This document shows, one piece after another, positions 43,055 to 59,744 of a stretch of DNA of 64,000 nucleotides (within the stretch, counting starts at the first letter, position 1; each line of letters opens with the position of its first letter). The notes under the pieces are model-generated. The model was given only the letters and a program-made list of their open reading frames with translations. It was not told where the DNA came from and did not search any database. This DNA comes from Acidimicrobiia bacterium (GTDB lineage: Bacteria; Actinomycetota; Acidimicrobiia; Spongiisociales; SHLN01), in contig JBFKDW010000003.1 in the NCBI GenBank assembly GCA_041619515.1, positions 18,828 to 82,827 on the forward strand, in the 5' to 3' direction. The translations under genes and the position numbers were made by a program.

Positions 43055-44056
43055 CTACCGGAAGGCCGGGATGATGGTCTCGCCGTAGTGGTGCAGGGTT
43101 TCCTCCTGCTGGTCGTGCATGAGATACACGCAGAACTGATCGACGCCGACCGCTTCGAGCTGGCGGATCTTCTCGATGTGCTGCTCGGCCGGGCCGAGCA
43201 CGCAGAACCGGTCGACCACGTCGTCCGGCACGAAATCGGTGGACGGATTGCCGACGACACCGTGGTGGGCGTAGTCGTAGTCCTGGCGGCCCTTGATGTA
43301 CTCCGACAGCGCAGCAGGAACCTTCTCGGGATCGTCACCGTAGCGCTCGACCAGGTCGGCCACGTGGTTGCCGACCATGCCTCCGAACCATCGGACCTGG
43401 TCGCGCTGGTGGGCGAGATCGTCGCCAACGTAGGCGGGAGCCGCCACGCACACCTTCACCTCGCCCGGATCCCGGCCGGCCTCGTCGGCGGCGTTTCGCA
43501 CGAACTTGGACGTCCACTCCACGAGATACGGATCGGCCAGCTGGAGTATGAAACCGTCGGCGATGCGTCCCGTCATGGTCAGCGCCTTGGGGCCGTAGCC
43601 CGCCATCCAGATCGGGAGGTCGTGGCCCTCACGCACCCAGTTGATCTTCAGCTTCTGTCCGTTGTAGTCCACTTCCTCGCCGGCAACGAGGCCCTTGATC
43701 ACCTTGATCGCGGCTTCGGTCGAAGCGAGAGTGGCCGGCTTCTTACCGATGTAGCGGAGGGCGGAGTCTCCCCGGCCGATGCCACAGACCATGCGGTCGG
43801 CGAACATCTCGTCCAGCGTGGCGAACAGGGAGGCGAGCACCGTCCAGTCGCGCGTGCCCGGGTTGGTGACCATGGGCCCCACCCTCATGCGCTCGGTTCC
43901 CTCCAGCATGAGGGTGAAGATCACGAACGGCTCCTGCCAGAGGATGTGTGAGTCGAAGGTCCACCCGTAGGTGAAGCCCATGTCCTCGGCCAGCCTGGCC
44001 AGCCGTACCACTTCCCGTGCGGGCGGGTTGTTCTGCAGTACCACTCCGAATTCCAT
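43055..44056 (-). CDS. luciferase-like monooxygenase (LLM) class flavin/F420-dependent oxidoreductase
   Basis: 333-aa protein MEFGVVLQNNPP...GFTYGWTFDSH...GPKALTMTGRIADGFIL...IIPAF with the bacterial-luciferase TIM-barrel signature, closest in style to the F420-dependent Mer/FGD subclass. ATG at 44056 preceded by aaggag. Last gene of the hyd-mmsA-LLM operon. Confidence 0.85.
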   Translation of the reverse strand: MEFGVVLQNNPPAREVVRLARLAEDMGFTYGWTFDSHILWQEPFVIFTLMLEGTERMRVGPMVTNPGTRDWTVLASLFATLDEMFADRMVCGIGRGDSALRYIGKKPATLASTEAAIKVIKGLVAGEEVDYNGQKLKINWVREGHDLPIWMAGYGPKALTMTGRIADGFILQLADPYLVEWTSKFVRNAADEAGRDPGEVKVCVAAPAYVGDDLAHQRDQVRWFGGMVGNHVADLVERYGDDPEKVPAALSEYIKGRQDYDYAHHGVVGNPSTDFVPDDVVDRFCVLGPAEQHIEKIRQLEAVGVDQFCVYLMHDQQEETLHHYGETIIPAFR

Positions 44057-44082
44057 GCCGCCGTCTCCTTTGCTCCTGTTGC

Positions 44083-45576
44083 CTAGCTCTGCTGGGGAAA
44101 CCCGAGGTCGACACCACGGTGAATCGGGTCCGACCAGCGGCTGATCACGACCTTGGGCCGGGTGTAGAAGTGGATGCCTTCCGGCCCGTATATGCCATGG
44201 GACCCGAAGATCGACTCCTTCCAGCCCCCGAACGAATAGAACCCGAGCGGGACGGGAATGGGGACGTTGATGCCCACCATGCCCACCTGGATCTCGTTCT
44301 GGAACTTGCGGGCCGCTCCCCCATCGTTGGTGAAAACGGCGGTCCCGTTGCCCCAGGGATTGTCGTTGATGAGCTGGATCGCCTCTTCGAAGCTGTCGAC
44401 CCGGACGACGTCGAGCACCGGGCCAAAGATCTCGTCCCGGTAGATGCTCATGTCGGGGGTGACGTTGTCGAAGAGTGTCGGGCCCAGGAAGAACCCGTTC
44501 TCGTGACCCTCCGGCGCAAAGCCTCGCCCGTCGGCAACGAGCGTGGCGCCCTCTCGCTCCCCGGCATCGATGTAGCCGGCCACCTTGTCGCGGTGCACCG
44601 CGGTCACGAGGGGGCCCATGTCCATGTCGGGCTGATCTCCCGGACCGACCTTGAGGTCGGCCATGCGATCCTTCATCTTGTCGATGAGCCGATCGGCCGC
44701 TTCGCCGACGGCAACGACCACCGAAACGGCCATGCATCTCTCGCCGGCCGATCCGTAGCCGGCTGAGACGGCGGAGTCGGCCGCCAGATCCATATCCGCA
44801 TCGGGCAGCACAATCATGTGGTTCTTGGCTCCCCCGAGGGCCTGGACTCGCTTGTTGTGGGAGGTCCCGGTCTCGTACACGTACCGCGCGATGGGAGTGG
44901 AGCCGACGAAGCTGACGGCCGAGATATCAGGGTGCTCGAGGATGCGGTCGACCGCCACCTTGTCGCCATGCACCACATTGAGCACCCCGTCGGGAAGGCC
45001 GGCCGCAGCGAAGAGCTCGGCGGAGAAATTCGATGCCGACGGGTCCTTCTCGGACGGCTTGAGCAGGAACGTGTTCCCACACGCAATGGCAATGGGATAC
45101 ATCCACATGGGAACCATGGCCGGGAAGTTGAACGGCGTGATGCCTGCCACCACGCCCAACGGCTGGCGCATCGTGTAGGTGTCGACTTGCGTCGAGACAT
45201 TCTCGGAGAAGTCACCTTTGAGGAGATGGGGAATCCCACAGGCGAACTCGATGACCTCGAGCCCGCGCTGGACCTCGCCGAGAGCGTCCGAGAAGACCTT
45301 GCCGTGCTCGGCCACGAGCAGCTTGGCGATCTCCTCGCGGTTCTGTTCCACCAGGTCGCGAAACGCAAACATGATGCGGGTGCGAGCGGAGACCGACGTG
45401 TCCCGCCAGCCCGGCAGCGCCTGCTTGGCCGCCTCGACTGCAACATCGACCTCTTCGGGGCCGGCCAGGGCCACCCGGCCGGCCACCAGGCCCGTCGCCG
45501 GGTTGTACACCTCGCCCCACCGATCCGGCTGACCGTCGAAAGGCTTGTTGTTGATCCAATGCCGAATCTCATTCAT
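44083..45576 (-). CDS. mmsA: CoA-acylating methylmalonate-semialdehyde / malonate-semialdehyde dehydrogenase
   Basis: ALDH-superfamily protein in MmsA register: N-terminal IRHWINNKPFDG..GEVYNPATG; catalytic Cys CMAVSVVV; FGGWKESIFG near the C-terminus (MmsA lacks the conserved Glu and uses CoA). ATG at 45576 with RBS aggagg. Confidence 0.9.
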   Translation of the reverse strand: MNEIRHWINNKPFDGQPDRWGEVYNPATGLVAGRVALAGPEEVDVAVEAAKQALPGWRDTSVSARTRIMFAFRDLVEQNREEIAKLLVAEHGKVFSDALGEVQRGLEVIEFACGIPHLLKGDFSENVSTQVDTYTMRQPLGVVAGITPFNFPAMVPMWMYPIAIACGNTFLLKPSEKDPSASNFSAELFAAAGLPDGVLNVVHGDKVAVDRILEHPDISAVSFVGSTPIARYVYETGTSHNKRVQALGGAKNHMIVLPDADMDLAADSAVSAGYGSAGERCMAVSVVVAVGEAADRLIDKMKDRMADLKVGPGDQPDMDMGPLVTAVHRDKVAGYIDAGEREGATLVADGRGFAPEGHENGFFLGPTLFDNVTPDMSIYRDEIFGPVLDVVRVDSFEEAIQLINDNPWGNGTAVFTNDGGAARKFQNEIQVGMVGINVPIPVPLGFYSFGGWKESIFGSHGIYGPEGIHFYTRPKVVISRWSDPIHRGVDLGFPQQS

Positions 45577-45605
45577 GTCCCGGCCTCCTGTTCCGTATCC
45601 GGTTG

Positions 45606-58359: not shown

Positions 58360-58437
58360 GCCGAGTGATCATCTTCCCCGCCGCGGGCACGGGCCGCGAG
58401 CGTTCCGGCCGCGTGCCGCTCGGGGAGGAAAACGGGT

Positions 58438-58896
58438 CTACTTTCGCTTCTTGGTCGCTTGCCGGGCTGCCTCGACCTCGGTCACGAAGGTATCGACGCT
58501 GGTCTCGCCGATCGCCCTGCCGATCAGCTCGAGCGGCAGGTCTTCGAGTGCCTTGAAGCGAACGCATGACTTGCCCATGTCCAGCCTCTTGCCGGTTGCC
58601 CGATACGCATCGAGAAACGCCGCCCGGGTCTCATCCTGGGCGTAGACCGCGGTGAGATACACGGCCATGTGGTTCTTCTGATTGGCCAGCGCCGCGTACA
58701 TCAGGGGCTTCCCGTTGTAGGTGTGCGGGTGGGTGTCGAGCGGCACCTGATAGCTGATCATCCCCCAATTCATCGCCTCCTCGTACCCGTCGGGGAGATT
58801 CGCCAGGATCTCGGCTCGGACCGCCTCGATGGCGGTGCGCCGGTCGGGCGGCAGCGAGGCGAGATACTCCTCGACCGTTTCGGCTCCCGATTGCAC
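58438..58896 (-). CDS. DUF1801 (YdhG-like) domain-containing protein
   Basis: Only the C-terminal 152 codons of track ORF 58438..59625 are taken, read as a DUF1801-like YdhG fold (AETVEEYLASLPPDRRTAIEAVRAEILANLPDGYEEAMNWGMISY...). GTG start at 58896, 6 nt after the ureidopropionase stop. Confidence 0.5.
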   Translation of the reverse strand: MQSGAETVEEYLASLPPDRRTAIEAVRAEILANLPDGYEEAMNWGMISYQVPLDTHPHTYNGKPLMYAALANQKNHMAVYLTAVYAQDETRAAFLDAYRATGKRLDMGKSCVRFKALEDLPLELIGRAIGETSVDTFVTEVEAARQATKKRK

Positions 58897-58901
58897 GGGA
58901 G

Positions 58902-59744
58902 TTACGGAGCAACCAGCGGTGAGTAGGCGTCGGGCCGGCGATCCCGGTAGAACGCCCAGGTCTTGCGGACCTCCTCGACCATGTCGAGATCGAGGTCGCG
59001 GACCACCAGCTCCTCCTCGGAGTCCGAAGCGGCCCCGTCGATGATCTGGCCACGCGGGTCGACGAAGTACGACGACCCGTAGTAGTCGTTGTCCCCAAAC
59101 GGCTCCTTGCCGACCCGGTTGATGGCGCCGATGAAGTATTCGTTGGCGACGGCGGCCGCCGGCTGTTCCAGGTTCCATAGATACATCGACAGGCCCCGGC
59201 TCGTAGCCGACGGGTTGAAGACGATCTTGGCGCCGGCCAGGCCGAGCGCCCTCCACCCCTCCGGGAAATGGCGGTCGTAACAGATGTAGACGCCGATGCG
59301 CCCAACGGCCGTGTCGAAGATCGGATACCCCATGTTGCCGGGACGGAAATAGAACTTCTCCCAGAAGCCGTTCACGTGCGGGATGTGGGTCTTGCGGTAC
59401 TTGCCGAGGTAGGTGCCGTCGGCGTCGACCACCCCTGCCGTGTTGTAGAAGAAGCCGTCGTCTTCTTTCTCGAAGATCGGAACGACGATGACCATGCCCG
59501 TCTCTTTGGCGAGGTCCTGCATCAGCCTGGTCGTCGGGCCGTCGGGAATCGGCTCGGCGTAGTCGAAATGCTCGTTCTCCTGGACGGAACAGAAGTACGG
59601 GCTGTAGAACAGCTCCTGAAAGCACATGACCTGGGCACCGTCGGCCGCCGCCTGCCTCGCATAGTCGACGTTCTTCTTCAACATCGAGTCCTTGTCACCC
59701 GTCCATTCGGTCTGGACGATGGCGGCCCGCACCACATTCCCCAT
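58902..59744 (-). CDS. beta-ureidopropionase / N-carbamoyl-beta-amino-acid amidohydrolase (nitrilase-superfamily C-N hydrolase)
   Basis: Nitrilase-superfamily catalytic triad context: VVRAAIVQTEW...MCFQELF (Glu), RKTH (Lys), GVYICYDRHFPE (Cys). ATG at 59744 preceded by aaggag. Confidence 0.85.
   Translation of the reverse strand: MGNVVRAAIVQTEWTGDKDSMLKKNVDYARQAAADGAQVMCFQELFYSPYFCSVQENEHFDYAEPIPDGPTTRLMQDLAKETGMVIVVPIFEKEDDGFFYNTAGVVDADGTYLGKYRKTHIPHVNGFWEKFYFRPGNMGYPIFDTAVGRIGVYICYDRHFPEGWRALGLAGAKIVFNPSATSRGLSMYLWNLEQPAAAVANEYFIGAINRVGKEPFGDNDYYGSSYFVDPRGQIIDGAASDSEEELVVRDLDLDMVEEVRKTWAFYRDRRPDAYSPLVAP

Follow-up and report, generated by a model that had tools for sequence, protein, structure and literature searches.

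A luciferase-like oxidoreductase as the probable F420-dependent ring reductase of a uracil/thymine catabolism island from Acidimicrobiia

Reductive (Pyd-type) catabolism of uracil and thymine starts with reduction of the pyrimidine ring by dihydropyrimidine dehydrogenase (PydA/PreTA; EC 1.3.1.1, 1.3.1.2), for which work on variants has covered only NAD(P)H-dependent and ferredoxin-dependent homologues (PMC7332683). Our analyses concern a minus-strand gene island (43055-59744) in a 64-kb stretch of DNA from an Acidimicrobiia bacterium, hereafter the window, where later enzymes of this pathway are encoded together with a luciferase-like protein (LLM; 43055-44056). We conclude that the island probably serves reductive uracil/thymine catabolism, with the ring reduced by LLM at the expense of reduced coenzyme F420 (F420H2) in place of the unrelated PydA/PreTA. 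This reading is based on the family to which LLM belongs, on its synteny with genes for dihydropyrimidinase (hyd) and beta-ureidopropionase (bup) across phyla, on the lack of a nearby PydA/PreTA, and on its fusion, in Proteobacteria, to genes for F420 synthesis and reduction (cof-fno). The same observations support the proposal of a first-pass annotation of this DNA that LLM supplies the missing dihydropyrimidine dehydrogenase step.

Like PydA/PreTA, which is often encoded beside dihydropyrimidinase, LLM would act upstream of dihydropyrimidinase (PydB) and beta-ureidopropionase (PydC) and catalyze the same reaction. The proteins themselves are very different, however. PydA/PreTA carries flavin mononucleotide (FMN), flavin adenine dinucleotide (FAD) and four [4Fe-4S] clusters, possesses a dihydroorotate-dehydrogenase-like domain and uses NAD(P)H, whereas LLM is a single-domain TIM barrel of 333 amino acids. 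LLM is not a PydA/PreTA homologue and would be a functional analogue at most. The clostridial ferredoxin-dependent PydAc (PMC7332683) is a parallel in that the electron donor of the first step shifts with the redox economy of the host while PydB and PydC stay constant; nevertheless, PydAc is still a PydA homologue with FMN and iron-sulfur (Fe-S) domains, while in the window the entire protein family appears to have been replaced.

Family, fold and predicted active site of the luciferase-like protein

LLM is a full-length member of TIGR03842 (552.4 bits against a cutoff of 295.45; residues 2-332 match the entire profile, positions 1-329 of 329). This family (F420_CPS_4043) is held in NCBIfam as a 'hypothetical equivalog', an LLM class F420-dependent oxidoreductase with no assigned function. 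PF00296 is the only Pfam match of the protein, and the other models of the class (Mer, FGD, alkanesulfonate and dimethylsulfone monooxygenases) all score far under their own cutoffs. The Mer equivalogs are among them (NF002619, 150.8 against 276; TIGR03555, 139.4 against 348.7), so LLM is not a Mer member. By sequence, the nearest solved structures are those of F420-dependent Mer (PDB 1z69 and 8qpl; E 1e-41, full length, 27-28% identity). A predicted model (predicted local distance difference test score, pLDDT, 83) also has Mer as its nearest fold (template-modelling score 0.79-0.81), and the twelve best fold matches in the PDB are F420 enzymes (Mer, FGD1, Adf and FGD2), with FMN monooxygenases lower and RutA not among the matches. 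No solved structure was found for any TIGR03842 member. The earlier description of LLM as an F420 enzyme of the Mer/FGD style is supported by its family membership and by its nearest structures, Mer followed by FGD1, Adf and FGD2. Grouping with the alkanesulfonate monooxygenases, which the first-pass annotation had named as an outcome that would speak against its proposal, was not seen, as those models remained below cutoff.

RutA is likewise a luciferase-like PF00296 protein that acts on uracil and, with the membership of LLM in PF00296 confirmed, LLM could be thought of as a RutA-like, FMN-dependent two-component monooxygenase that attacks the pyrimidine ring oxidatively. We consider this highly improbable. 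RutA uses FMNH2 and O2, needs RutF and opens the ring oxidatively, and the Rut pathway does without the dihydropyrimidinase that accompanies LLM. In the profile and BLASTP comparison with F420 families and RutA that the first-pass annotation had suggested, LLM scored above the TIGR03842 cutoff and was not significantly similar to E. coli RutA (E 0.12), nor was a RutA model found among its 22 NCBIfam matches. Further, no flavin reductase or Rut gene is conserved in the related genome loci described below (clade 1), where RutB-F and flavin reductases give only sporadic matches in 2-3 loci, and it is to F420 biosynthesis and the F420 reductase Fno that the TIGR03842 family is fused.

Active-site residues were mapped onto the published mutational analysis of jMer (PMC11094777). 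A non-prolyl cis-peptide loop backs the deazaflavin in Mer (PMC11094777), and this loop is kept: jMer G61-V62-T-N-P corresponds to M62-V63-T64-N65-P66 of LLM, and V-T-N-P is invariant in the family. The invariant D97 corresponds to jMer D96, which contacts the pyrimidine ring of the pterin, and LLM also retains hydrophobic position B (M227) and the carboxamide position at the end of beta-6 (Q172). The latter is position C of jMer, which, because of a mismatch, we treated as no more than a carboxamide position: it is given as 'Gln178' (PMC11094777), but residue 178 of the PDB 8qq8/8qpl sequence is Asn. The other jMer residues of that study (E6, G61-V62, D96 and F233) agree with the numbering of PDB 8qq8/8qpl.

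Mer is thus the closest solved homologue and shares with LLM the cis-peptide loop, the aspartate and the carboxamide position. In contrast, the catalytic Glu6 of Mer, whose E6Q variant has only 0.4% of kcat left (PMC11094777), is replaced by Val6 in 80 of 81 actinobacterial-type members and by Cys in Leisingera and Paracoccus. LLM also has an insert that is absent from Mer (about 226-275), with invariant R257, Y260-D261-Y262 and H265-G266, which in the model is plausibly a substrate lid, and its genes lie in a pyrimidine rather than a C1-metabolism context. Taken together, LLM looks like a Mer-like F420 barrel with a pocket for a pyrimidine-type ring and with different chemistry. His37 was considered as a conserved catalytic acid and rejected, since at this position a Streptomyces member has Ala and a gammaproteobacterial one has Pro.

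Coenzyme F420 carries hydride at a low potential (about -340 mV). Based on family and fold, we predict that LLM uses F420H2 directly as its cofactor. F420H2 made by the cell's Fgd or Fno would bind in the Mer-like TIM barrel over the cis-peptide loop V63-T64-N65-P66, while Asp97 and Gln172, the counterparts of residues with which Mer contacts the pterin pyrimidine ring and F420, would hold the pyrimidine ring. Uracil or thymine, as an alpha,beta-unsaturated ring, would then accept a hydride from F420H2 at C6, and the subsequent protonation of C5 would give 5,6-dihydrouracil or dihydrothymine. This hydride step would be analogous to the FMNH2 step of PydA, with an obligate two-electron deazaflavin and without an Fe-S wire. 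Dihydropyrimidinase would open the reduced ring, the nitrilase-type amidohydrolase would set free NH3 and CO2 together with beta-alanine or beta-aminoisobutyrate, from which the omega-transaminase would form malonate or methylmalonate semialdehyde, and MmsA would convert these semialdehydes to acetyl-CoA or propionyl-CoA. Uptake of the putative substrates (bases or nucleosides) would be the task of two BMP-type ATP-binding cassette (ABC) systems. In this scheme, gene content, family, fold class, synteny and the linkage to F420 supply were observed, whereas what LLM acts on, in which direction it works and which of its residues are catalytic are inferred.

Linkage to pyrimidine catabolism and to F420 supply

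The five enzyme genes named in the first-pass annotation were all found on the minus strand at the coordinates that it gave, and their family assignments hold by NCBIfam and Pfam. Dihydropyrimidinase (PydB/HydA) is encoded by hyd (45606-47033; TIGR02033, 548 bits against a cutoff of 393) and a CoA-acylating malonate/methylmalonate-semialdehyde dehydrogenase by mmsA (44083-45576; TIGR01722, 751 bits against 448). LLM follows mmsA after a spacer of 26 nt (44057-44082, minus strand; GCAACAGGAGCAAAGGAGACGGCGGC), which contains the AAGGAG ribosome-binding site that had been noted before. The product of bup (58902-59744; PF00795, CN_hydrolase, 227 bits) is a nitrilase-superfamily amidohydrolase whose assignment as N-carbamoyl-beta-alanine amidohydrolase (beta-ureidopropionase, the PydC-type step) we infer from gene context: it adjoins hyd and LLM in at least 63 related loci. 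Its closest solved relatives are the Drosophila (2vhh) and human (6ftq) beta-ureidopropionases and N-carbamoylputrescine amidase (E 1e-55 to 1e-57), and it reaches no NCBIfam equivalog cutoff (aguB 256 against 410). Lastly, AT (57030-58322; PF00202, 324 bits) encodes a class-III omega-aminotransferase with gamma-aminobutyrate-type transaminases (E 1e-68) and pyridoxal phosphate-dependent racemases among its closest solved relatives. It is present between bup and hyd in 47-54 related loci and is presumably a beta-alanine/beta-aminoisobutyrate transaminase.

PydA/PreTA is missing from the island, as had been claimed. The E. coli PreT and PreA sequences of the annotated K-12 record gave no tblastn match at E<=1e-3 in the window, and a Pfam sweep of 47 of its 53 predicted genes (the other six being small open reading frames and ABC permease/ATPase paralogues) found no DHO_dh, Fe-S or FAD protein of PydA type. 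At the same tblastn threshold, a PreT/PreA homologue was also absent from the 80 genome loci and 80 metagenome loci (~160 loci) described below. The plasmid collection provided a positive control: PreA and hydA are 105 nt apart on a Cytobacillus plasmid, and in Sinorhizobium the distance between them is 10 kb. Deinococcus carries PreA and hydA on separate plasmids. The plasmid hydA loci of Deinococcus, Paenarthrobacter, Streptomyces NBC_01727 and Klebsiella were rejected as canonical PydA controls, having neither PydA nor LLM near; they show that hydA-carbamoylase pairs can stand alone.

A scan of species-representative (GTDB) genomes gave 598 LLM relatives, and the best 80 of these, 62-72% identical to the window LLM, were analyzed with 10-kb flanks as clade 1. 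They come from Acidimicrobiia, Streptomyces, Pseudonocardia, Amycolatopsis, Crossiella, Streptosporangiaceae and Rubrobacteraceae, as well as from metagenome-assembled genomes (MAGs) labelled Acidobacteriota, Pirellulaceae and others. LLM travels with the pathway: hyd is located within 10 kb of it in 74 of the 80 genome loci. With the window included (81 sequences, also the basis of the layout counts), the distance from hyd or mmsA to an LLM start downstream on the same strand is at most 150 nt in 59 sequences and at most 50 nt in 44. The commonest layouts are bup-AT-hyd-LLM (27), bup-AT-hyd-mmsA-LLM (13), bup-hyd-LLM (13) and bup-hyd-mmsA-LLM (7). In all-against-all clustering of open reading frames, hyd, bup, AT and mmsA were the only conserved neighbors of LLM, and the transporters varied by lineage (BMP ABC in the window, NitT-like ABC in other Acidimicrobiia, NCS1 permease in Streptomyces). 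Distances among LLM and hyd sequences co-vary (Mantel r 0.90) and the LLM/hyd/bup correlation is high, although this is weak evidence because genes within the same genomes share their phylogeny anyway. One locus on a Rubrobacteraceae chromosome (L071, OZ243918.1, 3844-11014) reads hyd-AT-M20 carbamoylase-NCS1-(214-amino-acid open reading frame)-LLM; its PydC is of the M20 type, as in Proteobacteria, versus the nitrilase type of other Actinomycetota.

The thirteen minimal loci, which consist of bup, hyd and LLM without a transaminase or semialdehyde dehydrogenase, are of particular value since the only unfilled step beside PydB and PydC in such clusters is ring reduction. They also bear on the idea that LLM stands at the other end of the pathway and, in the manner of PydE or RutE/YdfG, uses F420H2 to reduce malonate or methylmalonate semialdehyde, detoxifying the aldehyde as 3-hydroxypropionate, with the uracil reductase encoded elsewhere. 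The 27 loci of the Streptomyces type (bup-AT-hyd-LLM) do possess a transaminase without mmsA, leaving a semialdehyde that needs some enzyme, and F420-dependent LLM enzymes include carbonyl reductases and alcohol dehydrogenases (PMC8498797). However, the minimal loci have no transaminase to form the aldehyde, and in at least 25 loci, the window among them, mmsA is present beside LLM and the step would be duplicated. It also seems unlikely that a whole cofGHDCE-fno operon, as found in the relatives described next, would be devoted to the reduction of an aldehyde well within the reach of NAD(P)H enzymes. Moreover, the nearest relatives of LLM are Mer-type reductases and the residue that binds the pyrimidine ring in Mer is conserved. 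A terminal role for LLM is therefore unlikely.

A second clade, with 45-47% identity to the window LLM, was found by a protein search of PLSDB plasmids, with TIGR03842 members (503-507 bits) on ten plasmids of Leisingera and one of Paracoccus alcaliphilus. In both genera LLM is the last gene of an operon cofG-cofH-cofD-cofC-cofE-npdG(Fno)-LLM (6510-13002 in L084, NZ_CP081034.1; 6587-13002 in L083, NZ_CP067126.1). The cof genes and npdG, which encodes the NADPH:F420 reductase Fno (TIGR01915, 187 bits), overlap one another by 4 nt, and a gap of 24-31 nt precedes LLM. This operon is all of F420 biosynthesis plus Fno plus LLM. A divergent operon in Leisingera encodes PntAB transhydrogenase, an omega-transaminase (AptA equivalog, beta-alanine-type, 742 bits), an M20 hydantoinase/carbamoylase-family amidase, a dihydropyrimidinase (TIGR02033, 614 bits) and an NCS1 nucleobase:cation symporter. 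The locus reads as a route from NADH through NADPH and F420H2 to the LLM substrate, followed by ring opening, decarbamoylation and transamination. Its NCS1 permease is 45-47% identical to the NCS1 permease adjacent to LLM in 16 loci (15 Streptomyces and one Rubrobacteraceae).

Scanning metagenomes with clade 2 as the seed added 80 further loci. In this set cof or fno genes lie beside LLM in 26 loci, with fno directly upstream in 15; hyd, M20 or bup is present in 34, and any F420 or Pyd gene in 60. Pathway and cofactor genes can be combined on one strand of a single contig, as in L105 (TetR-cofGHDCE-fno-LLM-M20-bup-NCS1-hyd), L097 (cofGHDCE-fno-LLM-M20-pntAB) and L102 (NCS1-hyd-...-cofGHDCE-fno-LLM-M20). 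Operons of cofGHDCE-fno that end in a TIGR03842 gene also occur on L090, L092, L094, L101 and L104. On the plasmids of Rhodobacterales and on contigs from marine metagenomes, such operons often have a TetR gene and genes of pyrimidine catabolism next to them. To judge from these arrangements, F420 synthesis in Proteobacteria with cof-fno-LLM operons may be pyrimidine-inducible. A third arrangement, Fgd-CofE-putative F420-0 ABC importer-LLM, was found on seven long contigs (L106-L111 and L116); in L110 (5311-11002) Fgd is a TIGR03554 member (493 bits) and the putative F420-0 importer matches TIGR03868/03869. It looks like an F420 salvage cassette serving the TIGR03842 enzyme. These contigs are very long, and no dihydropyrimidinase was found within 10 kb of the Fgd-CofE-importer-LLM operons.

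The transporters raise the question of whether LLM might act on another nitrogen heterocycle (a 5-substituted uracil, a modified pyrimidine or a hydantoin/imidazolone-type ring) that feeds the same hydrolases, in which case the island would not be primarily one for uracil and thymine. They differ by lineage (BMP ABC, NitT-like ABC, NCS1), dihydropyrimidinase-carbamoylase pairs are promiscuous and also form part of clusters that handle other cyclic amides, and a luciferase-family F420 enzyme has been proposed, by bioinformatics, for a purine-derived ring in Chloroflexota (PMC12507026). On the other hand, hyd is a full TIGR02033 equivalog, AT and mmsA are exactly the exits for beta-alanine and beta-aminoisobutyrate, and the NCS1 nucleobase permease is linked to LLM in Streptomyces and Proteobacteria alike. 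The 62-72% identity of LLM across phyla also fits a single universal substrate. We regard a different heterocycle as improbable.

Another alternative is that a canonical PydA/PreTA elsewhere in the genome carries out the first step, with LLM as an accessory or an unrelated passenger of the operon. Only 64 kb of the genome is in view, and the separate Deinococcus plasmids for PreA and hydA demonstrate that pathway genes can be unlinked. Hitch-hiking is nonetheless hard to square with ~130 linked loci in at least two deeply separated clades that differ in PydC type (nitrilase or M20) and in transporters, and the co-variation of LLM and hyd distances described above points the same way. In addition, no Leisingera plasmid record had a PreA match at E<=1e-20. 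The chance that the first step belongs to such a PydA/PreTA, with LLM in an accessory or unrelated role, seems very small.

Several points weigh against F420H2-dependent ring reduction by LLM. The absence of PydA/PreTA is a result for the 64 kb of the window, a part of the genome, and many plasmid hydA-carbamoylase clusters have neither PydA nor LLM nearby, so that the absence of an adjacent reductase alone is no evidence. No F420 biosynthesis gene was found in the window in the Pfam sweep, where the only PF03807 match is ProC of the proline pathway; that the source organism makes F420 is assumed from its Acidimicrobiia affinity. LLM occurs without pathway genes in 6 of the 80 genome loci, where its neighbors are unrelated housekeeping genes and uninformative, and it occurs without F420 or Pyd genes on ~20 of the 80 metagenome contigs, mostly under 6 kb in length. 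As for the protein itself, the insert at ~226-275 is modelled at low confidence (pLDDT 50-67), and no C5 proton donor is identifiable, the obvious candidate, His37, not being invariant. Lastly, enzymology or genetics of any TIGR03842 member was not found in the literature.

Organization and surroundings of the island

The window has a G+C content of ~66%, and its closest protein matches are in Acidimicrobiia MAGs, with identities up to 88-89%, so that the DNA probably comes from an uncultured representative of this class. The remaining island genes, all on the minus strand, mostly encode two paralogous ABC importers with binding proteins of the BMP/PnrA type. These are the two uptake systems that had been called nucleoside-type; we assign them to the BMP family. 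Importer 2, next to AT, consists of a BMP/PnrA-family substrate-binding lipoprotein (55815-56912; PF02608, 180 bits), a double ABC ATPase (54214-55749; two Walker/ABC units in its translation, paralogous to the product of 49192-50676), permease 2a (53108-54217; identified from its translation, with a start that overlaps the stop of the ATPase gene by 4 nt) and permease 2b (52158-53111; start chosen by third-codon-position G+C content, GC3, and a 4-nt overlap with permease 2a). Importer 1 consists of a divergent BMP-like substrate-binding lipoprotein (50781-52016), a double ABC ATPase (49192-50676; PF00005 in two stretches, 152 bits), permease 1a (48128-49195; identified from its translation, with a 4-nt overlap with each neighbor) and permease 1b (47154-48131; PF02653, 127 bits). 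The divergent binding protein has no Pfam match at 1e-5 and was recognized by its paralogy to the 55815-56912 product (27% identity, full length, E 6e-10). Its start had been placed at GTG 52034; ATG 52016 is more probable. The genes named in the earlier list were all confirmed, but that list had overlooked a gene between bup and AT, located 5 nt downstream of bup, for a DUF1801 (YdhG-like) protein of 152 amino acids (58438-58896; PF08818, E 5e-14; GC3 0.85). This gene is not conserved among related loci.

LLM does appear to be the last gene of a hyd-mmsA operon, as first annotated, since only 29 nt separate hyd from mmsA and 26 nt separate mmsA from LLM, which makes the three genes a tight unit. 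The block as a whole, however, is several transcription units and not one operon: gaps of 104-123 nt precede AT, both binding-protein genes, the ATPase gene of importer 1 (atp1) and hyd, each with a TAnnnT-like -10 element. A scan of the island for promoters and terminators of E. coli type gave no more sites than shuffled sequence, and an Rfam scan of the whole window gave no match. Both binding-protein genes are preceded by a near-identical leader (52017-52157 and 56913-57029, minus strand) that reads TGACGTAGAGTCCA, then 8-9 nt, then GAGGAGGAGC(A/C)GAACCATG. Since it is common to both genes, the importers are a tandem duplication that included the promoter and the 5' untranslated region. GC-rich hairpins lie 3' of both binding-protein genes. 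The upstream regions of hyd (47034-47153) and AT (58323-58437) have in common, on the minus strand, the motif CACTCGG...CGACTAGCTTT, possibly an operator shared by the two units or else an extended -10 element. A regulator gene was found neither within the island nor beside it.

Other genes of the window are mentioned here for completeness. Directly upstream of the island (60482-63998, minus strand) are genes for an NrfD-like membrane subunit and for two multi-haem cytochrome c proteins, one with four CxxCH domains and the other with at least two; the group resembles a portion of a respiratory or alternative complex III-type module. An RNA/DNA repair group on the plus strand (31955-36264) has genes for a LigD-type primase-polymerase domain protein, an archease-domain protein and RtcB RNA ligase in a row. 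Two adjacent dynamin-family GTPase genes (21186-24495, minus strand) encode a bacterial dynamin-like pair of ~570-600 amino acids each.

Implications and comparison with described enzymes

Soil and marine metagenomes contain thousands of TIGR03842 proteins. The chances seem evenly balanced that the family as a whole is a new Fe-S-free, F420H2-dependent dihydropyrimidine dehydrogenase of Acidimicrobiia, streptomycetes and many others, and that the cofGHDCE-fno operons of the Roseobacter group and other marine Proteobacteria, with their TetR-type regulator, mainly feed this enzyme and are pyrimidine-inducible. If this is true, it would fill the first-step hole in Acidimicrobiia, Streptomyces, Pseudonocardia and marine Rhodobacterales, in which hyd and bup are found beside LLM with no PydA near, and would be a third, unrelated solution to pyrimidine ring reduction besides the NAD(P)H- and ferredoxin-dependent PydA. 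The 'hypothetical equivalog' TIGR03842 could then be renamed and models of nucleobase nitrogen recycling improved. A single-subunit, Fe-S-free enzyme would possibly be useful for the production of dihydropyrimidines and beta-amino acids, and would be relevant to bacterial fluoropyrimidine metabolism.

The same proposal would give coenzyme F420 a defined catabolic role. According to a 2021 review of F420, "virtually nothing is known" of the coenzyme in the primary metabolism of streptomycetes, its purpose in Proteobacteria is an open question, and no uracil/thymine reductase is among the characterized F420 enzymes (PMC8498797). The super-operons of cof-fno, LLM and Pyd genes make the proteobacterial question directly testable, and pyrimidine induction would explain why alphaproteobacteria such as Paracoccus have only traces of F420 under standard conditions.

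The first-pass annotation had held that a role for LLM in pyrimidine degradation was undescribed, and we found no such description in the open-access literature. In PMC open-access and bioRxiv full text, with subscription journals outside the scope, F420 was not found tied, in the way proposed here, to dihydropyrimidine dehydrogenase, dihydrouracil, dihydropyrimidinase, ureidopropionase or hydantoinase, nor was a mention of TIGR03842 found.

Of the described systems, two stand nearest to the proposal, and LxmJ offers a chemical precedent. In uridyl-peptide antibiotic clusters, genetics has shown a need for NpsU/SSGG-03002, a putative F420/FMN-type oxidoreductase, in reduction of the C5=C6 bond of the uracil ring (PMC10714638); unlike LLM, it has a PPOX-like domain and belongs to the secondary metabolism of a nucleoside antibiotic, and its in vitro activity was not obtained. 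It was rejected as an LLM homologue, its sole F420-type similarity being to PPOX-class proteins. The second is the putative PF00296 F420 enzyme of Chloroflexota uric acid clusters, also proposed from its gene neighborhood, which would replace a PydA-like/YgfK reductase and act upstream of an amidohydrolase (PMC12507026). In contrast to the window, however, its substrate would be purine-derived and its cluster is a different one (SsnA). LxmJ and other F420H2-dependent reductases of the LLM class transfer hydride from F420H2 to an activated C=C bond within a luciferase-like fold, as proposed here, but LxmJ acts on peptide-bound dehydroalanine in secondary metabolism and is of a different subfamily (PMC8498797). 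Compared with these systems and with PydA itself, an F420-dependent, non-homologous replacement of dihydropyrimidine dehydrogenase is likely to be new for a known pathway.

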